The notes beneath the pieces are model-generated. The model was not told the origin of the DNA. It saw only the letters and a list, made by a program, of their open reading frames with translations, and ran no database searches. This document shows positions 25,095 through 63,766 of a stretch of DNA of 64,000 bases, piece after piece; within the stretch, counting starts at the first letter, position 1; every line of letters starts with the position of its first letter. The stretch is from Limisphaerales bacterium (lineage in GTDB: Bacteria > Verrucomicrobiota > Verrucomicrobiia > Limisphaerales > AAA164-E04), in assembly GCA_965203425.1 (NCBI GenBank), contig OZ241891.1, positions 91,289-155,288 on the forward strand. Direction: 5' to 3'. A program made the translations under genes and the position numbers.

Positions 25095-25123
25095 GTTGGT
25101 TTTGAGAGGCCGCAAAACAAGGC

Positions 25124-25873
25124 TTGTCAAGATTTTCAACTGCGGGTATTCTTTTGTGGTTTATGTGGTTTTCAAATGATTCGGAAAATTGGGCTAGGGG
25201 ACTGGCTTTTTTGCTGTTGGCGTTGGCGGCGGCCACGGCGTTTTGGTTGGCGGCGCACGCGCTGTTTCCAAAATTCAGCGATCGATCCAGCCGGCGTTGG
25301 CAAAGGCCGTGGCAGGACTTGGGACTTGGGCTGGGGATTTGCCTGCTGTTTTTTCTGTTAGTGCTTGGGGTTCGAAGTTGGGTGAACAATTCTTCGGTGG
25401 TTTTCAAAGTTCTCAGCGTCTTGGGCGTTGTTTTAGCGGGTGCGCTTTCTTTTGCGGCCCTGGCTGGCCTTGCGGGATTGGCTTTGCGAATTGGCGTCGG
25501 CATGAAGGAAGCGCGGGAAGATCGCCATTCCCGGCTGGTTTCCTTGCGAGGGAGCGTTGTTCTGGCGGCGATTTTTGGGTTTCCCGTGTTGAACGTCCTC
25601 TTCATTCTTCCGGTTCTGTTGGCCGGCGGGTTGGGGAATTCCATAATGACTTTGCTTCGACGGGATCCGCCTCGCTTGGGACGGGGGCGAAGCGTTGCTT
25701 CCCGAAGCCTTTCCCGAAGCGGACGAGGCGAGGGAGAGCATTTGGATCGTCCGTCTCGGCAGCCGCGTCGGGCAAGACTTCCCCGCCGCCGAGACGATCT
25801 AGATGCGCCGAGAACGGAGCCCCGAAGAACAACGGCAACAAAAAGGAGCGCCGGGTCTGCAGGCGACCAATAG
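25124..25873 (+). CDS. Hypothetical multi-pass membrane protein with an Arg-rich tail
   Basis: At least four hydrophobic helices and no recognisable motif. The R-rich C-terminus makes the 3' end uncertain. Confidence 0.45.
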   Translation: MSRFSTAGILLWFMWFSNDSENWARGLAFLLLALAAATAFWLAAHALFPKFSDRSSRRWQRPWQDLGLGLGICLLFFLLVLGVRSWVNNSSVVFKVLSVLGVVLAGALSFAALAGLAGLALRIGVGMKEAREDRHSRLVSLRGSVVLAAIFGFPVLNVLFILPVLLAGGLGNSIMTLLRRDPPRLGRGRSVASRSLSRSGRGEGEHLDRPSRQPRRARLPRRRDDLDAPRTEPRRTTATKRSAGSAGDQ

Positions 25874-25952
25874 CCGCTTCAGTTTGATCAAGTTCCCCGC
25901 AACTCGACACAGACGGCTGTCCCGTTCGTTTTGATCTGGCGCGTTTGGCGGC

Positions 25953-27365: not shown

Positions 27366-27371
27366 ACTGCC

Positions 27372-28484
27372 GTGCTTTTGCTTCGCTTGGCGGTGAAGGA
27401 GAGACGGCCAAGTTGGTTGGAGAACGCCGCCGCGTTGCCGATAGCCTTCGCGCAAGTTCGGGAGGACGCGCTTCTAGATCAAGCGGTGATTAATGATTTA
27501 GGGGGAAAAACGCGCTTGATTATGGTGGCTTCCGGCGGTTGCACGGCGGCTTTATTGGCTTCGATGTCCCAAGTTCGTTCTCTGCGCGTTGTGGATACCA
27601 ACCCTGCCCAACTTGCCTTGACCAAGTTGAAACTCCGCTTGCTTATGGAGACGTCCGTTGAGAAACGGCTTCAGTTGCTGGGGCATCTTGGCATGCCGAC
27701 AGAGGCACGGCGGCAAAAGCTGAAAGCCCTCTTTTCAGAAATTGGCTTGGCGGAAAACGTTTTGGGGCCGATTTCTTTGGTTGCTCGATTGGGTCCGGAT
27801 CATGTCGGCCGTTACGAGCGAGTGTTTGCTGCCTTGCGCCTTGCCCTTGCCTCTTCTCAAACTGAATTGGACTCGCTCTTGTCTCTGTCCAACGTTGGCG
27901 AACAAATCCGGGCGGCGGCGCCTGAGTCTTTGCTGGGAAAACGCTTGGACGAAGCGTTGGAAAAGGTGATGTCGCTGCCGAATTTGGTTCGATTGTTTGG
28001 GGCAGAAGCGACGAACAATCCGCTTGCCCCGTTTTCCCGCCACTTTGCCCGCCGAATTCGCCGCGCGCTTGCGGAAGGGACGGCCTGCGACAATCCCTAT
28101 CTTTGGCAAATGCTAAAAGGGCGTTATCCCGCAGGCTGTTTTGCGCCGTGGTTTGCCTGCGCGACGCCGCAAACTTTCCCTGAAATTGCGTTCGTCAATA
28201 CTTCAATGGAACAAGCACTGGAATCGGCCAAAGAACCTTGCGACTTTATCCACCTCTCGAACATTCTGGACTGGCTTTCCCCAAAAGCGGCGGCTCGGAC
28301 GCTCCAACTTGCCGGGCGAGCATTGAAGCCGGGAGGTCGAATTTTCATCCGCCAACTCAACTCCGCTTTGGACGTTCGGCAAGCAGGGAGGATCTTTGAA
28401 TGGCTGGACGAAGAATCCGAAGTGTTGCATAAGAAGGATCGGAGCTTTTTCTACCGCGCCCTTCACTTGGGCAGAAAGAAATGA
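27372..28484 (+). CDS. DUF3419 / BtaA-like protein (SAM:diacylglycerol 3-amino-3-carboxypropyltransferase family)
   Basis: FAQVREDALLD, MVASGGCTAALLAS, FIHLSNILDWLSP, ALKPGGRIFIRQLNS. GTG start. Confidence 0.65.
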   Translation: MLLLRLAVKERRPSWLENAAALPIAFAQVREDALLDQAVINDLGGKTRLIMVASGGCTAALLASMSQVRSLRVVDTNPAQLALTKLKLRLLMETSVEKRLQLLGHLGMPTEARRQKLKALFSEIGLAENVLGPISLVARLGPDHVGRYERVFAALRLALASSQTELDSLLSLSNVGEQIRAAAPESLLGKRLDEALEKVMSLPNLVRLFGAEATNNPLAPFSRHFARRIRRALAEGTACDNPYLWQMLKGRYPAGCFAPWFACATPQTFPEIAFVNTSMEQALESAKEPCDFIHLSNILDWLSPKAAARTLQLAGRALKPGGRIFIRQLNSALDVRQAGRIFEWLDEESEVLHKKDRSFFYRALHLGRKK

Positions 28485-29461
28485 AAATTCACCTTCTCAC
28501 TGAAAAGCCGCCGCCCATGATGGCGCAAGCGCTGGCGCAATTCGAGCGGCAGTTTCGCTACCCCTTAGTAGATGAACGCTTTTTCAGAATCCATCACGGC
28601 GAGGATTATTCCCGTTTCTTTCGAGCTATGGGCAAAGGCGCCAGCTTTGTCGCAGAGCGAGGCGGGAACATCCTAGGCACAATCGGAGTCGCCCGCCGCC
28701 CATTGATTCTTCCCAATGGAAACATGAAAGACGTAGTTTATATCGGCGACGCTAAAATGGCGCCTGAAAATCGCGGCGGCAAAGTATTGTGGCGACTCCT
28801 TCAAGCGGTTCGAACTTGGACTCTTCGATGCGCAAACGCCGCCTACTCCGCAGTAATGAAGGGAACGCCAATTGTCCCTACCCGCTACACGGGAAGGCTT
28901 GGCATCGAACCGTTTGCCAAGCTGGCCGAAGTCCTCATCCTAAGAATCCCGGTCAAGAAGGCTTTTGTTCCCTTCCAAAGAGATTGGAAAATCGACGCGG
29001 CGACCGGATGGAATCTCTACCGGAAATTGACGCAAGGATCCGCTCGATGTATCGGAAGCAAACCCGACATGCGTTCCCTTTCGCCACCGCAATGGTTGGC
29101 GGCGCCAAATTGCCAAGCCGTCGGCCTGCTGGAAGACACTCGGCAAGCCAAACGGTTGCTGGAATCGCCCCGGCTTTTCTCCGGCAATTCCAACGACAGC
29201 AAGAGTTTGGAAATGCGTGTCTCGCATCTTTCTCATTGCGCAGGGTTGGAAGGAGACGATGGAATCGCTTTGTTGCAACAAGCGCTTTCGCTCTCGACAA
29301 AACGCGGCTTTGATGCCATGTTCACCGCGGCGTCTTTTGCAACGGCAGAAACCATCGTAGCCCGGATTGGTGACGAAGGGATCCTTCGGGCTTGCGCCGA
29401 CATCTACGGCGCTGGACTAGACGCTGGAATGGTTTGGAACCTCAACACATCAGAGATTTGA
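28481..29461 (+). CDS. Hypothetical protein, GNAT/acyl-CoA N-acyltransferase-like N-terminal half
   Basis: A 4-nt overlap with the upstream gene. The FVAERGGNILGTIGVA ... VVYIGDAKMAPENRGG pattern resembles a GNAT core. This is a weak call. Confidence 0.4.
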   Translation: MKIHLLTEKPPPMMAQALAQFERQFRYPLVDERFFRIHHGEDYSRFFRAMGKGASFVAERGGNILGTIGVARRPLILPNGNMKDVVYIGDAKMAPENRGGKVLWRLLQAVRTWTLRCANAAYSAVMKGTPIVPTRYTGRLGIEPFAKLAEVLILRIPVKKAFVPFQRDWKIDAATGWNLYRKLTQGSARCIGSKPDMRSLSPPQWLAAPNCQAVGLLEDTRQAKRLLESPRLFSGNSNDSKSLEMRVSHLSHCAGLEGDDGIALLQQALSLSTKRGFDAMFTAASFATAETIVARIGDEGILRACADIYGAGLDAGMVWNLNTSEI

Positions 29462-29463
29462 CT

Positions 29464-30174
29464 ATGGACGAAGAAAATTGCGCACCCAACGTTGTTGCGC
29501 ACGCGGATCGTGTATTGCAACGAATCGACATCCTCAACAACAACTACTTGACCGCTTTGAAAGACGGCTCCATGTCTTTGGACCGCTTCCGAAAAACCCA
29601 AGAACAATTCTTCTTTGCCGTTACCTTTTTCCCTCGGCCAATGGCCGCCCTAGTGGGGCGCATCCCCAACCCAACTCAACGTTTAGACATTCTTCGCAAC
29701 CTAGTGGAAGAACACGGCGAGTTTGACGAAAAAGCTTTTCATCACTCTACCTTCCAGCAATTTCTTCGCTCCGTCGGAAGTGATCCAGAAACACTTGACG
29801 AGCTCTTTGTCTCGCCGGCCGTCCGGGCCTTCAACAGCGTATTGATTGCCTCCTGCGTTCTGGACGAAATCGAAGTGGGCATCGCCTGTTTGGGAATCAT
29901 CGAATACGCCTTTGCAGGCATTTCGGCTGTCATTGGAAAGGCCGTAGTCGATCGCGGCTGGGTGCGTTCGGAAAACCTCGCGCACTATAAACTGCATGCC
30001 GAAATCGATAAACGCCATGCGGCGGAATTTTTTGCAGTTATCGAGCCCCTCTGGCCGGAAAAACAGAAGCGTTACTATATCCAACAAGGACTCGACCTAG
30101 GAGGCTATATCTTTGACCGCCTCTACCGAGATATGCTCGACGCGGCCGAGAAAGCAAACAAGCCCCGACGGTAA
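29464..30174 (+). CDS. Heme-oxygenase-like fold / iron-containing redox enzyme family protein
   Basis: Start at MDEENC (ATG 29464, 2 nt after the upstream stop). All-helical, with LVEEHGE..H and KLHAEIDKRHA pairs typical of TenA/PqqC/HO-like di-iron folds. Confidence 0.5.
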   Translation: MDEENCAPNVVAHADRVLQRIDILNNNYLTALKDGSMSLDRFRKTQEQFFFAVTFFPRPMAALVGRIPNPTQRLDILRNLVEEHGEFDEKAFHHSTFQQFLRSVGSDPETLDELFVSPAVRAFNSVLIASCVLDEIEVGIACLGIIEYAFAGISAVIGKAVVDRGWVRSENLAHYKLHAEIDKRHAAEFFAVIEPLWPEKQKRYYIQQGLDLGGYIFDRLYRDMLDAAEKANKPRR

Positions 30175-30417
30175 AAAGAATAGTAATCAGAAAAATATCA
30201 CCATGCGCTTTCTATCCTCGCACAATGAAAAACTCCGCAAGGCAAGACGCAAAACGATCATATAATATATTTTCATCAATCTTTTCATAAATAGAATTAT
30301 AGATAACTAAATAATAGGGAAGAAAAGTAGAAAGTTTATCAGGCATTTCTGAGGAATAGAAATGGAAACCTGCAAAGAAATCCCTTGTATAAAGCGCTTT
30401 TAAAAACCTATAAAAAT

Positions 30418-31686
30418 TTAGATCTCCGCTACCGGCGCGGCGTTTTCGCATATAACTAGAGACATGCGTTCCACTTCGGCTTGAGGCATTTCAAGGTAAA
30501 ACGGCAGAAAAACAATTTCCTCCAGCAAGCGTTGCGCCCGCGCGGGTTCCAAGTCGGGACGGCCTTGCGGCGCCTTCACGGTCGTCATGCTGCCGTGTGT
30601 GCAGGCGTCAAAACCGCAACGACGCAACGACGCAAGCGTGCGCTTCGGATTGCCCACGCGTATGGGAAACAGATCAAAAGCATGCCTCTCGGCATCCTTG
30701 CCGGCTGTCGGAAACTTTGCGCCTAGCCGCGCCGCCAATTCTAGGCCTCGCTTCCGTTGGTCGTTCGCCCGGTCAGGGGAAAATCGACGCAACCGACGCG
30801 CCAGCAAATCCGTCAACGGAGCGCAAGGAATCTGCCGCAGTTGGCGAAGAAACTGCGATTCTTCAAAGCCGCGCACTTGCTTTTTAAGCCAAGCGTCATA
30901 ATCGATGCCCGCCCAAGTTAATGCATGCGCCAATGCCGAGAAGGGCAAGCGGCCTCCAAGCGCCTTCAATGCGGAATACTTGACCAGACGAAGCAGATAA
31001 CGTCGGCGAGGCTGTTTCGCGTAACGGCTCTGGATAACCCGCATTCGCTCCGCCAAATCGGCATCGCGCACGGTCAACACCGCCCCGCCCAGCGCCGTCG
31101 CCATTTTGATTGCGCCAAAGCTGTGCATAGCGACGTCGCATTGCGGCGGCATGGCGAAGGGGACGCCGTCGAAGGCTTGGGCGCGGTCTTCTACAACCAA
31201 CAATCCACGTTGGCGGGCCAGCGCGTTCAGTTCGGCAAGGTTTAGGCGGGCGCCAAAAAGATGCGCCGTTACCAAAACGCAAGTCTGCGGCGTGATGGCT
31301 TGGCGAACGGCTTCAATTGTCGGACACAAGCCGTCTCCGTCCACGTCCAAAGGCACGGGTTTTAAGCCGTTTTCTTCCACAACCCGCATCATGCCCGGCA
31401 CGTTAAGTGCGCTCATCAGCACTTCGCTTCCCTTGGGAAGACGGAGCGCCTGCAACAACAGATCAAAACCAGTGCGAACAGAAAGACACATGATCGCATG
31501 CCCGTCGATTGTCCACAATGACTCGATGCGTTTTGAACGACCTCCGCCCGGCCAAAAACAGCGGAAACCTCCATAGCAGAAGTCGCTCCAAGAAATGTCC
31601 AGCCGTTTGCGCGGCCACAAGAGCTTCCGTCTTCGGCCGCCATTGCTTTCTTGCGGGAGTTGCCGCGTTGGAGATGGTTTTGGCAT
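30418..31686 (-). CDS. DegT/DnrJ/EryC1/StrS-family PLP-dependent aminotransferase
   Basis: GSEVLMSALNVPGMMRVV, LVTAHLFGARLNL, LLVVEDRAQAFDG, and HSFGAIKMATALGG (candidate PLP lysine). Confidence 0.75.
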   Translation of the reverse strand: MPKPSPTRQLPQESNGGRRRKLLWPRKRLDISWSDFCYGGFRCFWPGGGRSKRIESLWTIDGHAIMCLSVRTGFDLLLQALRLPKGSEVLMSALNVPGMMRVVEENGLKPVPLDVDGDGLCPTIEAVRQAITPQTCVLVTAHLFGARLNLAELNALARQRGLLVVEDRAQAFDGVPFAMPPQCDVAMHSFGAIKMATALGGAVLTVRDADLAERMRVIQSRYAKQPRRRYLLRLVKYSALKALGGRLPFSALAHALTWAGIDYDAWLKKQVRGFEESQFLRQLRQIPCAPLTDLLARRLRRFSPDRANDQRKRGLELAARLGAKFPTAGKDAERHAFDLFPIRVGNPKRTLASLRRCGFDACTHGSMTTVKAPQGRPDLEPARAQRLLEEIVFLPFYLEMPQAEVERMSLVICENAAPVAEI

Positions 31687-31818
31687 AGCGCGTTGTTTCC
31701 GCTTGAGAAAGGATAAACTATTTTACACGGTGCGGCAACCATTTCTAGTTTTTCAACAGCGACGGCGCCGGACAAGAAAAACTGGCAAGTTGTATTCGAT
31801 TCTATTATTTTACTTGCA

Positions 31819-33897
31819 ATGCATCCGATGGTAGAGAAGGAAAAGTTTTACCGGGAGAGAATTAAGAGCATCCCCGATAGCGAGAGGCAAAGAGCGGGCG
31901 CGCTGTTGCGTTGCGTGCCGGATCGGACGGAGTGGGAAGAGTTGCAACAAATGCTGAAGAATTCTCCGTGGGCTATGGAACCCATGGCGCAGCTGGGCAA
32001 TCCCTTTCCATATCTTTTGCTGGTGCTATATGCGGGAGTGGCGTTTCACGAGTATAAAGACGCCACCTTTTGGACGCAGTTTTGCAGGGTAGTGGGATTG
32101 AGTTCTCTCTCCCCAAATCGTAAGCAGAAACTAAATGATAATTTTGATCGGGCGGCGAAGGCTTCCAAGCTTCATGATATTATCAAAACTGCCGGCGGTT
32201 GTTCTTTTGTCGGCACGGCGGTGTTTTTCATCGGCGTTCCCGTTTCTCTTTGGGATGAATTTTTGATCGTCTGCGAGTGGGCTTTATATTGTAAAGATTG
32301 GAAGAATTTATCCGACGATCAATGGCGAGAGGAACTGGAAAAGCACTTTGGCCGATGGAAGCGTTTGTTGAAATTTTTAAAAGAGAATCGAAAGGCGGCC
32401 GCAGGATTCATCCAAGAAATGCTGGACGCCCGCAAGATGCTGTCGGAGGACGACCAACTGAAGCTGTCGGACATCCGCCAAGCCAGTATTTTGCGCCCTG
32501 AATATTTTGAAGAAGTGCCGGAAACAGCGGAGTTTCTCCGTCCAAACGATCCAGAATCCCTACTGCATCACCGACCGAGATTGCATTGGCTCGACAATCG
32601 GATTGCCATTCACTTGCCTCCTGTTTTCGAAGATGGCGCCTCTTGGCATTTTGGCGAGGAAACACAACCGGCAAGCAATGTCGCAACGGAATTTCCCATC
32701 CACCGCAAAGCCTTTCAAGAGCAGTTGACCATCCAACTTCAATCTAGTCAAACCACAAAGTCCTTCCGCATTCCGGGGCTGCATCCCTTCGGGTTGTGGG
32801 ATGAAGAATCCAATCGCTTTGTGAACCCAAATCGCGCCCGCCTGCCGGTGCGCTCTTATATGTTGGTCTCGCTGAAAGAGTTGAAAATTGATGGGAAGGG
32901 CTGGGCCAAAGACGATGAAGAAGAAACGGAAAATGCGCCGCTTTTGCTGAAAGACAATGCTCAAGTGTTTGTGACCAGCCTTTTCCCGGTAGTTGATCGC
33001 CCGAAGTTGAAAGTCGAAGGACACAAAATTGAGTTTTGGCGGCGGGAGAGCGTAAAACTTCGGCTTTACTCCGGCAGTGAAAACTCTTATGCGTGCCGCT
33101 TTTTACTTCGGGAAAATTTGCCTATCCAAATCGAGGGGAGTCCTTATTTAGTTCTTGAAATCCCCGAAGGGTTTGTTGAAGATGACGACGATCTTCGCAA
33201 TCGAGAATTTAAGGTTTTAGTGGACGGAAAACCTGCTCTGGGAAAGTGGCGGTTTTTTCACGACTACGATGGCAAAGAAACAAAATGGGAATATTACGAA
33301 TATCGTATGGATTTGTCGAAAAGTTCATCTGCGTCCATACCACTCGGCGAGCATACTATTCAAGTTCACTCTCGGCGTGCCGGCGTCATTCCGCTGGGCA
33401 AAGAAAAAGAGTTTCGTGTGAACATCATAGAACCGTTAGAAGAAGACTGTTGGCCAAAACCTTGGCGAATGGAAAAATACTTGTTATGGGTCGTCCTCTC
33501 GCAAATTCAAAACGAAGCCACTTGGGAAAACTTCTGGATTGCTCGCCAATCTGTGGTCGGACTCGCACATGTGGATTTTAACCAAAATGATTTTAGGAAA
33601 CTCGAAGAACACGATTACATCTCCCGTTGCCACGGTCGATTTGAAATTTTAAAAAGTTGCATGGTTTTTAAGCCAATACAAAAGAATCAATTTACGGCTT
33701 ATTACTGCGGTTTAGTCAATCGCCTGCACGCAATAGTGCGCAAGTTTCCACCAATAAAGATGATTGAGGCCAAGCAAGAACGCGGCTTTCCCGCGCATTT
33801 GGAAATTCAATGGCCGCGAAACTACCGGTCGTCTATTCGTAACATTTGTCAGAGAGAAAACATTAAAATTAAACAACACAGCTTATGGAACCATTGA
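31819..33897 (+). CDS. Hypothetical 692-aa protein, partner of the giant helicase (no recognisable domain)
   Basis: Long intact ORF overlapping the downstream helicase gene by 13 nt. No catalytic motif that I can name. More AT-rich than the flanking genes. Confidence 0.8.
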   Translation: MHPMVEKEKFYRERIKSIPDSERQRAGALLRCVPDRTEWEELQQMLKNSPWAMEPMAQLGNPFPYLLLVLYAGVAFHEYKDATFWTQFCRVVGLSSLSPNRKQKLNDNFDRAAKASKLHDIIKTAGGCSFVGTAVFFIGVPVSLWDEFLIVCEWALYCKDWKNLSDDQWREELEKHFGRWKRLLKFLKENRKAAAGFIQEMLDARKMLSEDDQLKLSDIRQASILRPEYFEEVPETAEFLRPNDPESLLHHRPRLHWLDNRIAIHLPPVFEDGASWHFGEETQPASNVATEFPIHRKAFQEQLTIQLQSSQTTKSFRIPGLHPFGLWDEESNRFVNPNRARLPVRSYMLVSLKELKIDGKGWAKDDEEETENAPLLLKDNAQVFVTSLFPVVDRPKLKVEGHKIEFWRRESVKLRLYSGSENSYACRFLLRENLPIQIEGSPYLVLEIPEGFVEDDDDLRNREFKVLVDGKPALGKWRFFHDYDGKETKWEYYEYRMDLSKSSSASIPLGEHTIQVHSRRAGVIPLGKEKEFRVNIIEPLEEDCWPKPWRMEKYLLWVVLSQIQNEATWENFWIARQSVVGLAHVDFNQNDFRKLEEHDYISRCHGRFEILKSCMVFKPIQKNQFTAYYCGLVNRLHAIVRKFPPIKMIEAKQERGFPAHLEIQWPRNYRSSIRNICQRENIKIKQHSLWNH

Positions 33898-36800
33898 CAA
33901 GCCGTTTTACAAAAGAGGTTTTCAATCCCTACTTGGAATTGCTGAAATCTAATTATCGCTTTCATAGAAAGTTCGAGCACGCCCGCCGATCTTGGAAAGA
34001 CAAACTCACCAAACAGGAACTGGTGCGCGGCCCCTACCTAGAAAAGTCGCAAAGCTATAAGAAAGGTGAGCCGCTGGAAAATCTGGGGCTTCACCCCCAA
34101 ACCGCCGCAACTATTCAGTCTCGCCTTGGCAAAGGCAGTCTTTACCAACACCAAACCGAGGCGGTTCGCCTTGTCCTTGACGGGCAAAACGCTCTCATTT
34201 CCACAGGCACCAGCAGCGGCAAAACCCTTTGCTACCAAATTCCAATTCTGGACGACTTGATTCGCGATCCATCGCCCGGACTTCGCGCTGTGATTATTTA
34301 TCCGCGCAACGCGCTGGTGAACGACCAACTCTGGGAATGGAAAGAGATTCTGCAAAAACATCGCGACATTACTTTTGCCCGTTTCACCGGACAAACGCCG
34401 ACCTCACAGGAAAAATACGAAGAACGGTTGCGAGAACAAATTAGGCAAGAGTTGGAAGAGCGAGATCCGGGACTGAAAGAGTCTGAACTCCAGAGCAAGA
34501 TGGAGAACGAGTTGGCGGACCGTTTGGAGAAGGATCCAAAAAATCGCCTCAATCATCGCGACGATATTCGTCAAAAACCGCCGCACATTTTGATTACAAA
34601 TTTTTCCATGTTGGAATATTTGCTGGAGCGACCGGTAGACGCGCCCATCTTTGAAAATGCCCAACTTCGCTTTTTGGTGCTGGACGAAATCCATGCATAC
34701 CGCGGCATTCAATCGACGGAAATTGCGTTCCTCATCCGCCGTTTAAAAGAACGTTTGGGGCCAAAGCAACTTGCCTGCATCAGCACTTCGGCCACCATTG
34801 GCAACAAAACAAAGGAAAGCGGCAACAAAGCGCGAAAGTTCGCCGCTGATATTTTTGGCGAGCCGTTTGTTGAGCCTAATCCAATTCGCGGCACACCCGC
34901 AGAATTAAAGTTGCACTCGCCATCGCATTGCCCAAGCCCCACGCAGTATTGCGAAGCGGCCAATGCATTGCGCGCCGGCAAATCGACGCAAGAAGTTTTG
35001 AAGAATCTGGGACTTTGCGGAGAAGGGGACGATTTGGCCGATGCTTTTGAGCGCGACAAAAACTTGCACCGACTGCGAGCCGAGATTCTCACAAAACCAA
35101 CCTTGCTGACGGATGCGGCGGAGAAACTTTTCCCAAAACCAGAAAAAGAAAAAGCCTCAACATCTTTGCAATCTATGTTGGAACTTGTGGCTAACAGTGG
35201 AGAAGACAACCAAAACCTTCTGCCGACGCGCCTGCACTACTTTGTGCGGGCGCAAGGGGGTTTGCATCTCTGCCTGCGAAGCGATTGTTCGGGACGCAAG
35301 GGAAACGACCCCGCATTTTTTGTGTCGCGGCAGAACCGCCAAACTTCGAGCGGCGAGGAAACTTCGAATTGTCCCGAAGGGCATTGCCCGGATTGCTATG
35401 AAAGCGGGCAAGAATCCCGGTTGGTGGAAACCGTTTCATGCCGCAAGTGCGGCTATCTTTACGGCGCTTTGCAAGACCTTGGCCCGCGTAGGGCGCAAAA
35501 TCCCGGCAATCTGTCGGACGAAATCGAACCGTCCTTTGATTCGTTCAGCACGGAACTCGGTTGGGCGGCGGATTCGTTTTGGTCATATTTCAGCGTGGAG
35601 AACGACTTGCCTTTTCCAAAAACCAACAGCATCGACGAGGAAGATGTAGACTCCGCAAAGCTGTTGGAATCACCGGCAAAAATTGAGTGGTGCGCTTGCT
35701 GCGGCAAGAAGAAGGCTTCCGCCGGCGATTATTGCCGCTGCGAGACGCCGCATTTTCGCCAAATTCAAGTTTTCCACCGCCAATGCGACGAAAAAGAAAC
35801 GGTCAATCTTTACATGCAGACAAAGAAACCCTTGCTTTATTGTCCGAATTGCGGCGCGCGCAGCAACGCATCGGGCATTGAGCCGGTTCAGCGTTTTCAA
35901 GAATCGGAGGACGAAACCGGTTTGGCGATGGCGATTCCATTGGCGCACTTCCAAGTTTCGCCAAAGGCGAATGAAAACAAAAGACCGCCTCGGAAGTTGC
36001 TCTGCTTCACGGATCATCGCCAGCGGGCGGCCGCTTTTCCGTCTCTGCTGGAAGAAGAGACGTTCACGCATGATCTCGGACGCAAAATCGTTCGCATTGC
36101 GCGCAAGTTTAGCGGCAAAGATTTGAAAGTGGCGGATTTGGGACTTCGGCTGTTTGATGCATCTCGCCGCGATATTCATGGCGTCGGCAACCCGGATTAC
36201 GATCCTGATTTCTTTTTGCCGGTTTCGCGTTTTCCCGATGGTTATGATGCCAATGCGCGGGATAGTTTGCAGAAACAAGAAAATCTTTGGATCGGTGAAT
36301 CCTTGAGTTATTTCGGCATTCCGGATTCTGCCCGTGAGTCAGCGGAAGACTTGGGCTTAGTTGCAGTGGAATATGGAATTGAGGAAAAGGAACTGGCCGC
36401 GTTCCACAATCTCTTCAAAGGCTTTGGCTTGGACAGAAACGCCGCTGCTGCCGCTTTGCAAATCTTGCTGGGTTATCTTCGTCAAAGAAAGGCGTTCACT
36501 TTGCCGCCGGAGCGCGTTTCTCCCTATGACGCGGCTTTTGGCAGAGTTGGCGGCATTATCGCGTATGATCTGAAGACCGCCGGCAAATCTGTCCAAGGAT
36601 GGTTGTTGACCCAGAAAGGCAAACTTCGCAACAACTTCATCACCAGTTTTTTGCAGAGGCTCACAGGATTAAAAGACGAATCTTTGCGCCAATGCGGCGA
36701 GAAAGTTTGGCAGTTCCTGACTGGCGAAGGATTGCTCCAGAGAATTATCAATCCTCGCGCGTGGCAACTGGATTACGAGCGCATCATCGTCAAGCCGGCA

Positions 36801-38852
36801 ACGGATCGATTTGAATGTCCCCGTTGCGGCATCGTTACGGCGTATTCCGCAAGGGGTGTTTGCCCGCGCAAAGAATGCGATGGAACGCTGGAAGTGGTGT
36901 CGTTTGAGAAATCGCGGTTGGCGAAAAATCTCATTGCTCAATGGGTAGCCGGGCAGAGCAAGCCAAAATTTACCACTTTGAAATCAGAGGAACACACCGC
37001 CCAAATCAACAAGGAATTGGCCAAGCGTATTGAGGATCGTTTTCGAGAGGACGGCGTGAACTTGTTGAGTAGCACGACCACTTTTGAACTGGGCGTCAAC
37101 ATCGGCGATTTGCAAAAGGCACTACTCCGCAACGCGCCGCCCGCCAGCGCAAACTATGTGCAACGGGTTGGCCGAACAGGGCGAGGCAAAGACAAAAACT
37201 CCGTCTGCGTCACCATTTGCCGCCGCACAAAATACGACGCGGATATGTGGAAGGAACCAGAGCGGTTGATGAGCGGATCGATTCGTCCGCCCACTGTATT
37301 TTTGGAAAATCGGGAAATTGCCCGGCGACACTTCAACGCCGTCGCCTTTGCCCGTTTCCTGCGAGACGAGTACGAATCAGCGCTGGGAAGAGCGCCGGCG
37401 CAAAAAATTCCTTTGGAACCTTTTCTGCCGAGTGAATCTAGAGGAAAGATTCGCGAAGGACACCGGGAGCACAAACCGGAACAGTTTCTTGGCTTTTCTG
37501 ATTGGGCGCGAAAGCAGACTGAGAATGACTTGTTTGTAACGGAAAACTGCGTCGATTTGCTGAAGGCAGTCAAAGGTTTTTCTGCCGGCGTTAATCAATG
37601 TCAAGAAAGTTATGATAAGGCTTTCGCAGAGATCGCCGATGAACTGAACGCGCTGGCCAAAGAAAGAGAGCGGTTGAGCGACAAAGGCTACGATGACTCG
37701 GCGAAACTTCTTGGCGACTCTATCAAGAAACTGCTTGCGACGGACGTCATCGACGAGTTGGCTAAGCGCGGGTTTCTGCCGCGCTATGCCTTTCCGCTGG
37801 ATGTGGCCACTTTGGAGACGGGTTTTACGCGTTGGTCGTGGGATTCCGACGTTGAACTAAGCCGTGATCGAGGCATCGCCATTTCGGAGTTTGCTCCCGG
37901 CGCCCAAGTCGTTGCCCGCAAACAAGTTTTTACCAGCGAAGGACTTTATGTGGTCGGCCATGACGACAAACCTGAACGTCGCTGGTATGCGAGATGCAGG
38001 CAGTGCGACCAAATTGAAACCGCTGTGACTCAGAAAAAGTTGGGCAGCCAATGCCCCGTTTGCAAAAGCGCGGGGAGAACGACTACAGGATTTGTTGAAC
38101 CTTCGGCGTTTAGCATTCGCGTGGACAAAGGCAAGCGACCCCACTTTCGCCGGGCGACGTTGCTTCGGCAACGGCAACCCTTGACGCATTTCACCGACCG
38201 CATCGAAGAGGAAAAGTTTGAGGATTGCGGCTTGTTCCGCCTTGCTTTGAAGCCGGACGGGAAGTTGTTCCGTTACAACTTGGGGCCAGAAAACAAAGGC
38301 TTTGTCTTGTGTCCCGCTTGCGGTTATAGCGCGTCTCGCCGGAATTTCAAAAAGAGCAAACACAAAAAGTTGCGATGGCTCAAAGGACAAGACAAGAACT
38401 ACGAGAATAAAAATCTGTGGGGCGCGGCAGGCATGAACGGTCTTGCCTACGGCCACGAGTTTCAGAGTCATTGTTTGGTTGTTCGGCCTCAACGGGAATG
38501 CGATTCATCGGAGTCGTTAATGTTTGCGTTGCGAAAGGGAATGTGCAGCGTGCTAGAACTGGAGGCTTCGGACGTCGGTGTGACTCGGCGTTGGTTGAGC
38601 CATAAGAATGTCGATGGCGCCCAAGTGGAGTTTATTCTTTACGACCAAACGCCGGGCGGGGCCGGCTTCGTTAAGGATGGCAAAGACCGTTGGCCGGAAG
38701 TGGTGAAGCAGGCGGAGGAAGTTTGTCAAAAGACGGAGAATCATGTTTGCGATAAGGCTTGTTATGATTGTTTGAAGGATTTTGGCAATCAATCCTATCA
38801 TGAGGATTTAGACAGGAATTCGGTGTTGAGATTCTTCGACATTGTGGAGTGA
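33885..38852 (+). CDS. 1655-aa DEAD/DEAH-box SF2 helicase with internal Zn-ribbon insertions and a C-terminal DUF1998 (MrfA-type Zn-binding) domain; DruE/DrmA-DrmB-like
   Basis: LYQHQTEAV, motif I STGTSSGKT, Ia IYPRNALVNDQ, II VLDEIHAYRG, III STSATIG, VI YVQRVGRTGRG. Multiple CxxC pairs at aa ~463-523, 603-656 and 978-999. The C-terminus ILYDQTPGGAGFV ... CDKACYDCLKDFGNQSYHEDLDR is characteristic of DUF1998. Confidence 0.9.
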   Translation: MEPLTSRFTKEVFNPYLELLKSNYRFHRKFEHARRSWKDKLTKQELVRGPYLEKSQSYKKGEPLENLGLHPQTAATIQSRLGKGSLYQHQTEAVRLVLDGQNALISTGTSSGKTLCYQIPILDDLIRDPSPGLRAVIIYPRNALVNDQLWEWKEILQKHRDITFARFTGQTPTSQEKYEERLREQIRQELEERDPGLKESELQSKMENELADRLEKDPKNRLNHRDDIRQKPPHILITNFSMLEYLLERPVDAPIFENAQLRFLVLDEIHAYRGIQSTEIAFLIRRLKERLGPKQLACISTSATIGNKTKESGNKARKFAADIFGEPFVEPNPIRGTPAELKLHSPSHCPSPTQYCEAANALRAGKSTQEVLKNLGLCGEGDDLADAFERDKNLHRLRAEILTKPTLLTDAAEKLFPKPEKEKASTSLQSMLELVANSGEDNQNLLPTRLHYFVRAQGGLHLCLRSDCSGRKGNDPAFFVSRQNRQTSSGEETSNCPEGHCPDCYESGQESRLVETVSCRKCGYLYGALQDLGPRRAQNPGNLSDEIEPSFDSFSTELGWAADSFWSYFSVENDLPFPKTNSIDEEDVDSAKLLESPAKIEWCACCGKKKASAGDYCRCETPHFRQIQVFHRQCDEKETVNLYMQTKKPLLYCPNCGARSNASGIEPVQRFQESEDETGLAMAIPLAHFQVSPKANENKRPPRKLLCFTDHRQRAAAFPSLLEEETFTHDLGRKIVRIARKFSGKDLKVADLGLRLFDASRRDIHGVGNPDYDPDFFLPVSRFPDGYDANARDSLQKQENLWIGESLSYFGIPDSARESAEDLGLVAVEYGIEEKELAAFHNLFKGFGLDRNAAAAALQILLGYLRQRKAFTLPPERVSPYDAAFGRVGGIIAYDLKTAGKSVQGWLLTQKGKLRNNFITSFLQRLTGLKDESLRQCGEKVWQFLTGEGLLQRIINPRAWQLDYERIIVKPATDRFECPRCGIVTAYSARGVCPRKECDGTLEVVSFEKSRLAKNLIAQWVAGQSKPKFTTLKSEEHTAQINKELAKRIEDRFREDGVNLLSSTTTFELGVNIGDLQKALLRNAPPASANYVQRVGRTGRGKDKNSVCVTICRRTKYDADMWKEPERLMSGSIRPPTVFLENREIARRHFNAVAFARFLRDEYESALGRAPAQKIPLEPFLPSESRGKIREGHREHKPEQFLGFSDWARKQTENDLFVTENCVDLLKAVKGFSAGVNQCQESYDKAFAEIADELNALAKERERLSDKGYDDSAKLLGDSIKKLLATDVIDELAKRGFLPRYAFPLDVATLETGFTRWSWDSDVELSRDRGIAISEFAPGAQVVARKQVFTSEGLYVVGHDDKPERRWYARCRQCDQIETAVTQKKLGSQCPVCKSAGRTTTGFVEPSAFSIRVDKGKRPHFRRATLLRQRQPLTHFTDRIEEEKFEDCGLFRLALKPDGKLFRYNLGPENKGFVLCPACGYSASRRNFKKSKHKKLRWLKGQDKNYENKNLWGAAGMNGLAYGHEFQSHCLVVRPQRECDSSESLMFALRKGMCSVLELEASDVGVTRRWLSHKNVDGAQVEFILYDQTPGGAGFVKDGKDRWPEVVKQAEEVCQKTENHVCDKACYDCLKDFGNQSYHEDLDRNSVLRFFDIVE

Positions 38853-39442
38853 GGCCGTTTGCGCGGGCGTTTTGCGATTGCGCTTGAGTCGCGGCGTATT
38901 TTGGCGGTTTGGCGGGCGGTTTAGAGGGAGAGTTTTTGGAATTTTTCTTCGATGAAGGTGGTTGGGCGATGCTGATTCGATGTTTTTCGCCGATGCTGAG
39001 TTGGACGCCGTGTTCGCCAAAGCAAACAGGAAAGTGAATTCGACTCTCTCAACGCAATTTCATATTCAAACTATGATATTTTCAGCAGGGAGACCCGATA
39101 GACGAATCTTCTCCGATGAACATGGTCAAGAGCGAGAAAATCAAAAGGCAATGGGAAGTGCGCAAGCTTTTTGCGTTTCCAACGATCTTTTTAGGTTTCA
39201 ACATTTTTATGTTTTTGCGGACTTGACTGGTTGAAAAGAGAGGTATTTGAGGGAGGAGAGGGAGGGAAAAAGACGGCAATTTTTCAGCCTGATTTCAGGA
39301 TAGCGGATTTTTATTGATTTTCCTTGTCAAAACTAGAAATGCTTTTGGTTTTATATGTTTTGTTGCCGGCCTGAAAAATTTCGGTTGCGACGGATTTGAT
39401 TTTTGGCGAGCCAATCAAAAGGCATTAAAAAGGCATTAACTT

Positions 39443-41116
39443 ATGCGCTGTTTTGTTTCAAAGATTCTGAGTTGGGTCATCCTTGTCGGGCTTGCCTCCG
39501 CAAACGCCGAGCCGCCGTCGGAAAATCAGCCGACAGCTGAAACCGAGAGCAATCCACAAGCGGAGTTCGGCTGGCACTTTGCGGGAATTAGCGCTGTGGA
39601 ATCTGCGGAGAATGCTTTCACGTTGCAGGATGTTTGGCGATTGCCGGAAAGCCGGCGCCTGGGGCGGCTCTTGACGGAGAGGCTTGCCCGGACGCCGGAA
39701 CGCCAAATGTTTGGCCGTCAAGCGGTTGCGAACGCTGAGCGCGCGCGAATCGCTCAATCTTTGGCGGCGTTGCTTTTGGCTTTTGAGAGCTTTGGTGAAG
39801 TCAATGGGCTAGCCGGCGAACGGCCGCATCTTTCGTTGGCGGTGAAGTTGGCGCCGCCAAAAGCGGCCGAATGGAAGCAGAAACTTCGCCTTTACTTTGC
39901 CTCGTTGGGTTGGCGGGAAATTGCAGACTCCGCCGAGGAAAATCTTCGTTGGCTGGCGTCGAAAGAGGATTCGGAGGCTCGTTTGGCAGAAGAAGGAGAG
40001 TGGTTGCTGTTTGGCGCCGGCCACGGTAATTTTTCGCGCTTGGCGGAGTGGAAAGCGTCGATTGCCGGCGGTTGTTTGCCTTCGTCTTTGGCGGCGGGTG
40101 ATTTGCTATTGTTACGCGGCCACGCCGGCAGACTGGCCGAATGGTTGGCCGGCGTTTCTCTTCCCTCATTTTCGGATTTTGAAGTTCGCTTCCAACCCGA
40201 AGAAAACAGCGTGCGAACGACGGCGACAATCCGCTTGCGCGAGGCCGTAGAATTTCCTCTCCCAGACTGGGAAGTGCCTGCCAAGTTCATCCGAGATCCC
40301 ATTGTCAGCTTCAGTGCCGCACGGGGTCTGCGTTCCGTCATTGCCAAATTGCCGGCGGCCAAAACGCTGGCTGAACGAGGCATCCCGGAACAATTCTTCT
40401 TGTGGTCGCGACGATTTGTTCCATCTTCAAAAAGCATGCCCATCTATCCGTTCCCTGCCTATCTCGCCTGGCCTATTCCGCTTGAAGAAGTGAGAGTCGA
40501 GCGTCTCCACCAACACCTTTCCGACCTCGTTGGCGCGGACGTTCTTGCAAGCGGTCGCGCCCGTCTGGTTTCTCTTCCCAAACTCAACAAAACAATGCTT
40601 CAGCTGCGGGCGCCGTTGGTGGAGCCTTTCGTCCGCGGCTTCACAAACCAAACCCAAGGCGTCCGAATCGCCGGCCTTTTTCCTTTGATCAATGAGCCGA
40701 GACCGATTCCGGACGCCTTGTTGGCGCAACTGGACGGCGCCGAGAATTTGGTCTACTATCACTGGGAAATTACCCAGAACCGACTAGACTTCTCCAAAAA
40801 TCTATTTCAACTCCTAGCATTCTTGACCGGCCAATCGCAGATGAAGGCAGACGGCTACGGACTCCCTTGGCTGAACGCCGTCGCCCCTAAAATGGGCAAC
40901 GCCGTTACCATTGTGACCGCTCCCGCGCCTCAAACCCTTCAGCTGGTAAGAAAATCCTACTTCGGCTTCACCGGTTTGGAACTGGCCGCCTTTGCCCGCT
41001 GGCTTGAATCCGAGTCTTGCCCTTGGATCGACGCCGAATTCCTCTCCGCTTGGAAAACGAAACCCGCCGCCAACCCGCTAAAATCTCCCGCTACCGATGC
41101 TCAAACTGGGCGTTAA
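39443..41116 (+). CDS. Hypothetical secreted protein
   Basis: Signal peptide ILSWVILVGLASANA. No recognisable domain. Its 3' end overlaps pdxJ by 20 nt. Confidence 0.6.
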   Translation: MRCFVSKILSWVILVGLASANAEPPSENQPTAETESNPQAEFGWHFAGISAVESAENAFTLQDVWRLPESRRLGRLLTERLARTPERQMFGRQAVANAERARIAQSLAALLLAFESFGEVNGLAGERPHLSLAVKLAPPKAAEWKQKLRLYFASLGWREIADSAEENLRWLASKEDSEARLAEEGEWLLFGAGHGNFSRLAEWKASIAGGCLPSSLAAGDLLLLRGHAGRLAEWLAGVSLPSFSDFEVRFQPEENSVRTTATIRLREAVEFPLPDWEVPAKFIRDPIVSFSAARGLRSVIAKLPAAKTLAERGIPEQFFLWSRRFVPSSKSMPIYPFPAYLAWPIPLEEVRVERLHQHLSDLVGADVLASGRARLVSLPKLNKTMLQLRAPLVEPFVRGFTNQTQGVRIAGLFPLINEPRPIPDALLAQLDGAENLVYYHWEITQNRLDFSKNLFQLLAFLTGQSQMKADGYGLPWLNAVAPKMGNAVTIVTAPAPQTLQLVRKSYFGFTGLELAAFARWLESESCPWIDAEFLSAWKTKPAANPLKSPATDAQTGR

Positions 41117-41858: not shown

Positions 41859-42396
41859 ACTTTTTGTATTTCACAACGAAGAGACCGGCGTCTCCTTATA
41901 TCACGTGGATTGCGTTTCCTTTATGGAAGAGATTGCTACGAAACATCCTCCGGGCTTGTTTGTTTGATATGATATTTGCCGATCCGCCCTATCTTCTTTT
42001 TTCCAACAGCTGCACAACCTGCCATGCGGGAAAGAGGGTAAAAGTGGACAAGGGCAGATGGGATAAATCACGAGGCAGCTTAGAATTCAACCACGAATAC
42101 AATTTATTATGGTTGAGTTTATGTCAAAAGTTGTGAAAATAAAATCGAACTATTTGGGTTTCCAGAAGGCAGCATGTAATTTATTCGATCGGGTTCGGCA
42201 TGCAACAATTAGAAATGAAAATTCTCAACGATGTAACATGAGGAAAAACCCAATCTTCCTCCCAACTTGCCGTGCAGATGCTTCACGCATTCTGCGGAAA
42301 CCATTCTCTGGGCGGCAAAAAACAAAAAGTCCAAGCACACATTTTTGGAGACTGGACTTTATCCAGCTATCCATTCAGAGATTAGAAAACTCTTAA
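41851..42396 (+). pseudogene. Remnant of a beta-class (PF01555-type) DNA methyltransferase, multiple frameshifts and stops
   Basis: LYHVDCVSFMEEI, then DMIFADPPYLL (motif IV) in another frame, then fragments resembling the region before motif I. At least three frames are needed. AT-rich. Confidence 0.7.
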
Positions 42397-42419
42397 GCAG
42401 AGAGAACCAGTTTCAATTT

Positions 42420-42872
42420 TCAGAGATTGTCGAATGATAAGAGGAGGAAAGGGCGGAAGCGGTACAAGAACCGGCTTGTTTTTGGAGTGCGAAGTTAATT
42501 TTCTATCGCTTCTAAAATAAATCTAGGGATATGAAGTTAAAAAGCAAATCAAAGAGCCGGCCATGAAATTTATTATCAAGGCAATCTAGTTGCCAGATGT
42601 TTCAAAAAGCACCAGTTCTACATGTTTTTGAAGGAACATGATATTGATTGGAGAAACATAATTTCTAAAAACTGTTGCCCGATGGATCTTTTATCATTCA
42701 AAACACTTTGTTTATTACCGAAGTCAAATACCAACAAGGGGAAGGTTCCGTAAATGAAAAATTGCAAACTTATGATTTGAAGCAGAAACAATATCTTAAA
42801 TTAGTTGTGCCGTTGGAGTTAAAGGTGGAATACGTCTATGTCTTGGGCGATTGGTTCAAAAACCCAAAATAA
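42420..42872 (+). pseudogene. Remnant of a PD-(D/E)xK type II restriction endonuclease paired with the methylase remnant
   Basis: Fragments GGKGGSGTRTGLFLE, FYMFLKEHDIDWRNIISK and an intact tail DGSFIIQNTLFITEVKYQQGEGSVNEKLQTYDLKQKQYLKL..VEYVYVLGDWFKNPK (D...E-V-K core). These are interrupted by stops and frameshifts. Confidence 0.55.
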
Positions 42873-42900
42873 AAGAAACTTCCTGCTTCAGTTTAGACAA

Positions 42901-43716
42901 TTAGATGTTTACCGTATTGGTGTTGGTTTCTTCCTTCCCGCAAAGGCCGAGTTGTTTTCGGAGTTCGCTAATTTCGGCGGTGATTCCTTGTTGGAAGAAG
43001 ATGGCGTCCGCTTTGTGAATGAGCAGATTAGCGCCCATTTCCACGAATCGCCTTTGTTCTTCTATGGAAAACCATGCGTGAATGCCGGCGCCGATTTTTT
43101 GGTTTCGCGCTTTTTTGAAGATGGTTTCGGCGGCTTTTAGAAATGCCGGGTGTTGATATTGTTCCGGGATGCCGAGGCTGGCGGTGAGATCGTGCGGGCC
43201 GATCAACACGGCGTCGATTCCATCGACGTCGAGAATTTCCTCCAGCGCGTCCATTGCCGGAACGCTTTCGATGTTGAGGATGAGGAGACCGCCGGCCGGG
43301 TTGTCTTCGACGTAGCGGGCAAGCGACGATTGCAGTGGACGGCCGGCGAGGGTTTCGGCAAGCCGTCGGCCTTTGAGCGGCCGGAGTTTGGCGGCGCCTT
43401 TGAGCGTGCGCGCGGTTTTGGCGCATTCGACGTAAGGAGCGATGACGCCGACGGCGCCGTCATCCAGGGCGACGGTTGCTTGGTTGGGGTTATGGTCGGG
43501 GATGCGCACAAGCGGAGGCAATCCCATAGCGGCGTAGGCGCGGCACATCCAGGATAGACGCTCGCGGTCAATGGCGATGTGTTCGGTGTCGATGAAGACG
43601 AAGTCCAGGCCGCAGTCACGGAGGATCTTTGGCCAAAAAGGAGAGGAGGAGGCGACGAGCGTGCCAAGCACGGTGTTGCCTGTTTTGAGGGCGGTTTGCA
43701 GTTTTTTGGCAGTCAT
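42901..43716 (-). CDS. HpcH/HpaI-family aldolase
   Basis: Start at MTAKKLQ (ATG 43716). GLDFVFIDTEHIAIDRE, PLVRIPDHNP, GAVGVIAPYVE, GIDAVLIGPHDLTASLG. Confidence 0.85.
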   Translation of the reverse strand: MTAKKLQTALKTGNTVLGTLVASSSPFWPKILRDCGLDFVFIDTEHIAIDRERLSWMCRAYAAMGLPPLVRIPDHNPNQATVALDDGAVGVIAPYVECAKTARTLKGAAKLRPLKGRRLAETLAGRPLQSSLARYVEDNPAGGLLILNIESVPAMDALEEILDVDGIDAVLIGPHDLTASLGIPEQYQHPAFLKAAETIFKKARNQKIGAGIHAWFSIEEQRRFVEMGANLLIHKADAIFFQQGITAEISELRKQLGLCGKEETNTNTVNI

Positions 43717-59788: not shown

Positions 59789-59864
<76 letters not shown>

Positions 59865-63669: not shown

Positions 63670-63766
63670 GGAGAGTCAAGAGTGGCTGGTGTCCTCCGCG
63701 GTCTTCAAAACCGTTGTCGGTCTGTTCCGCAGGCCGAGGTGGGTTCGATTCCCACCCTCTCCGCCA
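63670..63766 (+). tRNA. tRNA-Sec(UCA)?: 97-nt class-II-like tRNA with a UCA anticodon (tRNA-Sec candidate or opal-decoding tRNA), CCA encoded
   Basis: Hand fold: anticodon arm GCGGT-CTTCAAA-ACCGT, an 8-bp variable arm TCGGTCTG/CAGGCCGA, T arm G(G)TGGG-TTCGATT-CCCAC(C), acceptor GGAGAG/CTCTCC + G + CCA. I could not fold the D arm into the canonical 6-bp bacterial Sec stem. Confidence 0.6.

Follow-up and report, generated by a model that had tools for sequence, protein, structure and literature searches.

Does a pair of overlapping genes that places a giant DUF1998 helicase behind a protein of no recognised family form a new anti-phage defence system, or is it a variant of one that has already been described? 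This question is raised by a locus in a 64,000-nucleotide stretch of contig OZ241891.1 from a Limisphaerales bacterium (the window, meaning the whole stretch analysed), where a 692-aa protein, here called the partner, is encoded directly upstream of a 1655-aa helicase. Our analysis indicates that the locus is probably an anti-phage module of two genes that spreads horizontally and belongs, in a compact form, to the Druantia type III kind. Its second gene would encode a DruE-type helicase that lost, or never had, the C-terminal phospholipase D (PLD)/Vsr nuclease. Its first gene probably encodes a 'mini-DruH', in which a DruH-like helical N-terminal domain is followed by about three immunoglobulin (Ig)-like domains, where DruH has six, and then by a C-terminal domain unlike that of DruH, small and basic.

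Both open reading frames (ORFs) start with ATG, are intact and overlap by 13 nt (33885-33897). Their lengths of 2.1 and 5.0 kb are far above chance, and there are many full-length homologues of both. The guanine-cytosine (GC) content is 47.2% in the partner gene and 51.7% in the helicase gene, compared to 55-59% in the flanking genes. An earlier note on this DNA had reported two intact, overlapping ORFs richer in AT than their neighbours, the larger encoding a DruE-type fusion of helicase, zinc ribbon and DUF1998 with a complete superfamily 2 (SF2) motif set, and the ORF map, base composition, motif positions and database matches all agree with that description. Similarly, its statement that the locus encodes no methylase, PLD or other effector holds, as no methylase, PLD or other nuclease gene was found at the locus and no methylase or PLD gene within 8 kb on either side. 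A third gene kept with the pair was sought across the loci described below and none is conserved.

The helicase carries GTSSGKT at aa 108, DEIH at aa 267, SAT at aa 302 and QRVGRTGR at aa 1093, together with nine CxxC motifs. Its C-terminal ...ILYDQTPGGAGF...CDKACYDCL lies within the Pfam MZB/DUF1998 match, and the protein terminates 25 aa past MZB. In PADLOC, the top matches are all DruE, led by DruE3 (1.1e-168, 562 bits) and DruE1 (8e-156) and followed by DruE2 and DruE4; E. coli DruE reaches 2185 bits on the same DruE3 model, so that the window helicase scores about one quarter of this. Matches to DrmA are marginal (1e-10) and confined to 65-115 aa within the helicase core. Among PDB structures, the helicase matches 9tu7 (E. 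coli DruE, 1.3e-80), 9wae (a second large helicase) and 6znp (B. subtilis YprA/MrfA, 6e-28). The BLASTP alignment with E. coli DruE has 24-31% identity and extends to residue 1715 of the 2104 in the E. coli protein, the point at which the window helicase ends, and therefore the tandem PLD region (~390 aa) of type III-A DruE is absent from the window helicase. The signature helicase of Druantia, a large YprA-family SF2 helicase with DUF1998/MZB, is present according to PADLOC, Pfam and PDB, and by these scores it falls outside close membership of every modelled DruE subtype.

The two genes are strictly paired and patchily distributed. When 185,579 species genomes were scanned with a profile built from 33 partner homologues (A1), partner loci turned up in 52 of them, across about ten phyla. 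The closest loci belong to a Limisphaerales bacterium (80% amino acid identity) and a Pedosphaera sp. (62%), which makes a Limisphaerales/Pedosphaeraceae verrucomicrobium the most probable source of the window, and other carriers include Acidobacteriota, Nitrospirota, Planctomycetota (Brocadia, Scalindua), Binatia, Thermodesulfobacteriota, Elusimicrobia, Ignavibacteriota, Gemmatimonadota and others. A DruE-like gene lies directly downstream on the same strand in 48 of the 52 loci, the four exceptions being contig ends or fragments. Furthermore, the pair is present in 12 of the 12 metagenome loci that were read, six found via the partner and six via the helicase; the latter six helicases were sampled from a clade with 55-60% identity, and a partner-family gene precedes each of them. 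Among the 52 loci, none of the other window genes is found repeatedly beside the pair, and a two-gene operon of partner then helicase, as expected of Druantia type III, is conserved as a unit. Identity across loci is ~56% for the helicase and ~32% for the partner; beyond close relatives the values are 49-60% and 29-43%, respectively. The same asymmetry, with DruH evolving faster than DruE, has been taken as the sign of a sensor (Wu et al., PMC13192584).

The flanks of the pair are unrelated between phyla and often defence-like. For example, the neighbours include Hachiman HamA/HamB and an OLD-like ATPase in locus L004, an Eco57I-type gene in L002, PDDEXK and HEPN/MNT genes in L062, NB-ARC, two SLFN-like helicases, PIF1 and GmrSD on the contig of P0064, a reverse transcriptase, a dynamin-like GTPase and SIR2 in L063, and a KAP NTPase, a methyltransferase-HNH gene and an insertion sequence in L064. 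The contexts of L001 and L003 are housekeeping. No partner homologue was found on PLSDB plasmids, where helicase relatives are at most ~33% identical (24-29% among the matches listed, and 33% for a re-aligned Thermus locus).

Two loci encode DruE-like helicases of 1559 and 1968 aa behind other proteins. In the Clostridium butyricum plasmid pNPD4_2 (L007:2768-10653, helicase of 1559 aa), the overlapping, unannotated upstream gene encodes 1069 aa, and in the Ralstonia solanacearum megaplasmid (L008:4508-11823, helicase of 1968 aa) it encodes 470 aa. Neither upstream protein has a PADLOC DruH match or similarity to the partner, and the set of DruE partners seems to be wider than DruA-H.

The partner itself has 88 homologues of 28-95% identity, every one annotated as 'hypothetical'. 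It matches nothing in Pfam (in a scanned copy that did not hold PF27205 and PF27201), NCBIfam or PADLOC at E<=10. A search of PDB sequences with the A1 profile, among them the E. coli DruH structure 9tud, found nothing. When the A1 profile was used as a hidden Markov model (HMM) to search 1.84 billion representative proteins, only its own family was recovered, comprising 193 representatives, of which ~40 are full length at 680-750 aa.

Structure prediction brings the partner closer to DruH. The AlphaFold2 model of the partner, built with A1, is confident (pLDDT 87, pTM 0.84). It is all-helical at aa ~1-250, beta-rich at ~254-540 and alpha/beta at ~546-692, and in Foldseek searches of PDB and BFVD it matches only multi-Ig fragments (best E 2e-5), such as Dscam Ig1-3, myomesin, titin, KIT D1-3, IL-23R and FLT3. 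No DruH appears in this output, which is uninformative, as the DruH model misses 9tud too, an entry outside the library. The AlphaFold2 model of E. coli DruH has helices to aa 247, a beta region at 260-831 and an all-alpha C-terminal domain at 842-1119, and in Foldseek it matches the same class of multi-Ig receptors. The two proteins share a domain plan of helical N-terminal domain, Ig string and C-terminal domain, with about three Ig domains in the partner against six in DruH, and the beta region begins at aa 254 in the partner and aa 260 in DruH. Mean pairwise identity within the partner family is 44% in the N-terminal domain and 33-34% in the Ig and C-terminal parts, with the lowest values at aa 476-550. 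The isoelectric point of the partner C-terminal domain is 9.7, compared to ~6 for the other domains, and its three-helix-plus-hairpin pattern in the model suggests a winged-helix-like DNA-binding module.

The likeness to DruH is strongest in the N-terminal domain, and homology of the two N-terminal domains is likely. Full-length comparison by hhalign of the partner with a profile of 31 DruH sequences (A2) gave a sole alignment, co-linear over 182 columns, between partner aa 35-234 and DruH aa 37-231. When only the N-terminal domains were compared, the score rose from 26.1 to 32.3 with the added diversity of a 57-sequence partner profile (A3), corresponding to P 6.6e-4 and an hhalign probability of 27%. 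None of 100 column-shuffled templates reached 32.3 (mean 15.4, standard deviation 3.1, maximum 25.8). Invariant residues of the partner and DruH coincide, namely LYA (70-72 and 71-73), W85 and W88, G139-x-P141 and G137-x-P139, and P227-x-Y229...P234 and P224-x-W226...P231. Moreover, secondary structure assigned by DSSP in the two AlphaFold2 models agrees at 82% of the 182 aligned positions, compared to 46-67% in shifted registers and 58% by chance; this is an independent test because the hhalign alignment used no structure information.

Several findings weigh against the compact Druantia type III reading. None of more than 10 DruH models in PADLOC, nor that of DrmE, matches the partner, and neither does the NCBIfam STY4851/ECs_5259 (YjiT) DruH family; as a positive control, E. 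coli EDL933 DruH (L005:12768-16127, 'STY4851/ECs_5259 family') matches ten PADLOC DruH models, down to 2e-20. In precomputed annotation, PF27205 and PF27201 are carried by all full-length DruH homologues and missing in 88 of 88 partner homologues. The ~1100-aa DruH proteins were never reached in the A1 search of 1.84 billion representatives. By all standard sequence tests, the partner is not DruH. The full-length hhalign comparison is also non-significant (P 0.1 with A1, P 0.02 with A3), and a rival 44-column match of the partner N-terminal domain to the DruH C-terminal domain scores 25.3, compared to 32.3; the underlying 'IPxSxW..C' match was considered as a domain permutation and rejected as the weaker alternative. 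Scores of global hhalign with rotated templates overlap the observed score, and the global score, indistinguishable from these controls, was dropped as a measure. Glu75 of E. coli, invariant in DruH, aligns to a hydrophobic residue of the partner, and the residues of DruH implicated in the binding of single-stranded DNA (ssDNA) and ATP sit in Ig5 and the all-alpha C-terminal domain, where the partner has no counterpart. Beyond the partner, all 52 carriers are uncultured metagenome-assembled genomes (MAGs), and the setting of the pair in the window, as in the two genomes closest to it, is a syntenic housekeeping context and not a defence island.

Such failures of every DruH sequence model are what would be expected if the locus were a distinct DruE-centred defence system that deserves its own type, with a partner unrelated to DruH and an Ig string reached by convergence. 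Tandem Ig domains are a frequent and easily convergent module, hhalign of the partner Ig and C-terminal regions against DruH (including its all-alpha C-terminal domain) gave no signal, and in the models the partner C-terminal domain differs in class from the large all-alpha domain of DruH. Furthermore, the C. butyricum and Ralstonia upstream proteins are likewise undetected by DruH models, and therefore replacement of the partner around a DruE-like helicase seems to be common. However, an unrelated partner would have to arrive independently at an N-terminal alignment that is co-linear, at the same N-terminal offset, with shared invariant motifs and concordant secondary structure, as well as at a beta region that starts within a few residues of that of DruH and a gene order and overlap as in DruH-DruE pairs. 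We regard separate ancestry of the partner as rather unlikely.

A further possibility concerns the kind of immunity rather than its ancestry. In three partner variants of 518-521 aa (L066:4445-6001, L037:8001-9164 and protein P0081), aa 1-399 are kept and the remainder is a CarD_TRCF_RID domain, and these variants still lie directly upstream of the same helicase clade. This replacement suggests a conserved docking core with an exchangeable targeting module. The partner family could then be a modular adaptor platform new in kind, which would provide nuclease-free immunity through a helicase that strips or stalls phage replication or transcription complexes. The core (the N-terminal domain and first Ig domains) would dock the nuclease-free DruE and the exchangeable C-terminal module would set the target, this module being, in most members, the basic domain with its winged-helix-like pattern and, in L066, L037 and P0081, the CarD/TRCF domain, which interacts with RNA polymerase. 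If true, such immunity would depart from the helicase-nuclease mechanism currently put forward for Druantia III, and on present evidence we consider it improbable.

For the compact Druantia type III module, we infer defence activity, substrate, polarity and the role of the partner by transferring the mechanism from experimentally studied DruH-DruE systems. The fast-evolving partner may recognise an infection cue, either a phage protein or exposed ssDNA or DNA ends, via its Ig-like and C-terminal modules, and could then engage or license the helicase or guide it to its target. Single-stranded regions, 3' tails or forks of replicating phage DNA would serve as loading sites, from which the helicase would translocate or unwind 3'-to-5' using its zinc modules and an OB-CON-MZB canopy, by analogy with the loading on ssDNA, 3' tails and forks and the 3'-to-5' unwinding of DruE (10.64898/2026.05.13.724758; 10.64898/2026.05.12.722862). 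The outcome could be a block of phage DNA replication or circularisation, interference of this kind having been reported for M. smegmatis DruHE (PMC13316683). With no nuclease in the helicase and no DruH C-terminal pocket in the partner, interference would come from unwinding or blocking, from a nuclease in the partner N-terminal domain or from host nucleases; any DNA cutting would be due to that domain or to host enzymes such as RecBCD. Nuclease activity of DruH has been reported by Loeff et al.; the published catalytic residues of PaDruH are R22, K28, E64 and E220. Conservation of catalytic residues in the partner N-terminal domain is not apparent.

Among known systems, the closest comparison is with the nuclease-less 'Druantia type III-like' (III-B) branch of DruE, mostly without a nuclease domain, which has already been described (Bell et al., 10.1101/2025.09.15.676423). 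In its active M. smegmatis pair (MSMEG_1253/1254), the genes overlap by 17 bp and encode a DruH of 1132 aa and a nuclease-less DruE of 1667 aa (PMC13316683). As in III-B, represented by GIH50614.1 in Bell et al. (2025), the window locus has two overlapping genes with the partner first, a DruE of ~1650-1670 aa that ends at DUF1998/MZB without a nuclease and has insertions rich in zinc modules, and a partner without an annotated catalytic domain. In described size and lack of nuclease, the window helicase is consistent with the III-B clade. The difference lies in the partner, since the III-B DruH has ~1100-1130 aa, six Ig domains and a large all-alpha C-terminal domain, whereas the window partner has 692 aa, is invisible to DruH HMMs and has ~3 Ig domains and a small basic alpha/beta C-terminal domain.

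The III-A systems of E. coli and P. aeruginosa (DruH-DruE; 9tu7, 9tud) are more distant. Gene order, helicase family, the domain plan of the partner and its greater divergence than the helicase are shared, but helicase identity is only 24-31% and the DruE3 score is 562 compared to 2185 bits. The DruE of the III-A clade is ~2100 aa long and is defined by tandem C-terminal PLD-like nuclease domains (~390 aa), which the window helicase lacks, and the window partner is without the Ig5/C-terminal ssDNA/ATP pocket region of DruH and leaves Glu75 unmatched. An upstream DruH recognised by HMMs (PADLOC DruH3, NCBIfam, PF27205 and PF27201), which is also expected of type III, is not found. The locus has the general features of Druantia and the operon plan of type III, and a DruH-like fold and architecture of the partner is probable.

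The larger claims of the earlier note can be judged from this comparison. It had placed the upstream gene in the position of DruH and found it too short to recognise, and indeed no DruH, DrmE or other model matches it. Its proposal that the helicase-DUF1998 theme appears here in a minimal or new form stands as far as a compact variant is concerned; 'novel defence system' was an overstatement because the partner shares the DruH domain plan and probably its N-terminal fold, and is thus probably not unrelated to DruH. Three of the checks suggested there have an outcome. The pair co-occurs across genomes as a conserved unit, the PADLOC HMMs recognise the helicase as DruE-like at low score and leave the partner unmatched, so that the two are not both assigned to a known subtype, and AlphaFold and Foldseek gave a confident model with multi-Ig folds and no specific family.

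Other systems with related helicases fit less well, as the partners that define DISARM, ARMADA and MrfAB are all absent from the locus. DISARM (DrmA, DrmB, DrmC and a methylase) has the same YprA-family helicase core and DUF1998 zinc domain, but in separate genes (DrmA and DrmB), whereas they are fused in the window, and the locus has no methyltransferase (DrmMI/MII), DrmC PLD or DrmD/DrmE. The YprA-like helicase of ARMADA, ArmC, comes from a related lineage whose insertions are BrxA-like, Zn-barrel and MarR-like. However, genes for a BrxHII-like helicase, a PglX-like methyltransferase or a GajB-like helicase are not found next to the window pair, whose own helicase is without a Vsr nuclease domain.

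The MrfA/YprA-MrfB repair module shares the SF2 helicase with MZB and, judging by the 6znp match, probably the 3'-to-5' polarity. The pair could accordingly be thought of as a DNA-repair or replication-restart helicase of the MrfA/YprA kind with an accessory DNA-binding subunit, inherited vertically and without a role in immunity. The membership of the repair helicase MrfA in the YprA family (6znp, 6e-28), the lack of a nuclease, methylase or toxin at the locus and the fact that the window and two Limisphaerales/Pedosphaera genomes carry the pair at one and the same chromosomal position, surrounded by metabolic genes, would all suit such a role. Nevertheless, MrfA has ~750 aa and no zinc-module insertions, compared to large insertions and ~1650 aa in the window helicase, which are typical of the defence branch (10.1101/2025.09.15.676423), and MrfB is an exonuclease, whereas the window partner has no Pfam match. 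Low GC, patchy spread across about ten phyla and helicase decay in the closest relative (described below) are signs that point to an accessory element, and together with unrelated flanks, frequent defence neighbours and a fast-evolving partner they speak for an accessory defence element rather than a housekeeping function, which makes a repair role very unlikely.

The surroundings of the pair record its turnover. The 590 bp downstream of the helicase gene, in which the earlier note saw no convincing genes, hold no credible ORF, but they do carry two 55-nt relic blocks of a minus-strand ABC exporter (38908-38962 and 38964-39018; blastn, 90-96% identical to L010 and L011). With the ABC transporter of L011 as the query, tblastn matched positions 38962-38924 to the last 13 aa of that protein, TTFIEEKFQKLSL, and positions 39018-38938 to the region of its signature motif. 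The exporter is intact (605-618 aa) at the same position in the relatives L010 and L011, adjoining the end of druE, and the spacer appears empty because the exporter gene has been deleted down to ~110 nt. The left flank is common to the window and both verrucomicrobial relatives, and L010 (Limisphaerales MAG OZ242022) has 87% nucleotide identity to window positions 25007-35735. In this closest relative (L010:10070-14728), druE is truncated after ~aa 617, giving a 721-aa ORF with the DEAD domain only, and behind it lie two unrelated genes on the minus strand, ORFs of 380 and 470 aa with no Pfam match. L010 reads as a decayed copy of the system, and its loss of the helicase is the turnover expected for an accessory gene.

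That the window pair is likewise a decaying remnant, with frames intact and function gone after the loss of the DruE nuclease and half of DruH, is extremely improbable: the deletion scar, the truncated helicase of the nearest relative and a partner ~430 aa shorter than DruH would fit, yet the short form is full length in dozens of lineages at 28-60% identity with invariant residues throughout, which implies that the compact form has been under purifying selection for a long time, and the DruE of M. smegmatis is active without a nuclease (PMC13316683).

Druantia III is at present the subject of intense mechanistic work. Published models of DruH conflict, describing it as an ssDNA binder inhibited by ATP, a 3'-5' exonuclease or a protein sensor, and published views also conflict on the need for the DruE PLD nuclease. 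A naturally minimised version with no PLD, half the Ig string and no DruH C-terminal pocket, under selection in its compact form in many phyla, could reveal which parts are essential. The locus also exposes a blind spot of PADLOC-type annotation, because the partner family has no model and such loci are reported at best as orphan DruE. In addition, Druantia-like immunity would extend to uncultured Verrucomicrobiota, Acidobacteriota, Nitrospirota, anammox Planctomycetota and other phyla.

Table 1. Features of the two-gene locus in window coordinates.
Feature	Position	Strand	Basis and remarks
Divergent intergenic region, 132 nt	31687..31818	.	ORF map and sequence; between minus-strand DegT-type aminotransferase gene and partner gene
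Gene of the partner (692 aa), a short protein resembling DruH, proposed as sensor/adaptor	31819..33897	+	Intact ORF; AlphaFold2 model; 88 homologues
Partner N-terminal all-helical domain, aa 1-250; candidate DruH N-domain homologue	31819..32568	+	DSSP, hhalign
Central part of the partner (aa ~251-545), beta-rich, with about three Ig-like domains in tandem	32569..33453	+	Foldseek, strand pattern
Partner C-terminal alpha/beta domain, aa 546-692, basic	33454..33897	+	DSSP, isoelectric point
DruE-type YprA/MrfA-family SF2 helicase, 1655 aa, without nuclease domain	33885..38852	+	Intact ORF; PADLOC, Pfam, PDB, BLASTP
RecA1 core segment with Walker A GTSSGKT	34146..34412	+	Pfam DEAD aa 88-176; motif positions
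RecA2/Helicase_C segment with motif VI QRVGRTGR	36975..37187	+	Pfam Helicase_C aa 1031-1101; motif position
MZB (DUF1998) four-cysteine zinc-binding domain	38523..38774	+	Pfam PF09369 aa 1547-1630, 1.4e-9; CYDC at aa 1626
Right boundary, 590-bp spacer without gene	38853-39442	.	Outside the system; carries ABC-exporter relics

The operon promoter is presumed, from its position, to lie in the divergent intergenic region. A sigma-70 consensus scan of that region found nothing exceeding shuffle expectation, and a terminator consensus scan gave no signal above shuffled expectation. The upstream flank consists of lactonase, HEAT-repeat, DUF3419 and haem-oxygenase-like genes and the divergent DegT aminotransferase gene, and downstream a 557-aa secreted protein is followed by pdxJ.

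The upstream genes form a cluster (23898-31686) that is syntenic between the window and two related verrucomicrobial genomes and encodes a 7-bladed lactonase, a HEAT-repeat protein, a DUF3419 protein (similar to S-adenosylmethionine-dependent methyltransferases), a 326-aa protein of no known family, a haem-oxygenase-like iron redox enzyme and the divergent DegT-type aminotransferase; these genes may together make up a small biosynthetic cluster. The 557-aa ORF (39443-41116) has a clear N-terminal signal peptide and no family match, overlaps the start of pdxJ by 20 nt and is missing from all other pair-carrying loci, including the two close relatives within 8-kb flanks. Between pdxJ and a minus-strand HpcH-type aldolase gene lies an AT-rich kilobase (42001-43000, GC 39% compared to a window mean of 53%), in which a 95-aa ORF (42109-42396) has no Pfam match. 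An Rfam scan found two distant tRNAs and nothing else, tRNA-Phe (GAA) at 59789-59864 and tRNA-Sec (TCA) at 63670-63766, the latter a selenocysteine tRNA from which it follows that the organism makes selenoproteins.

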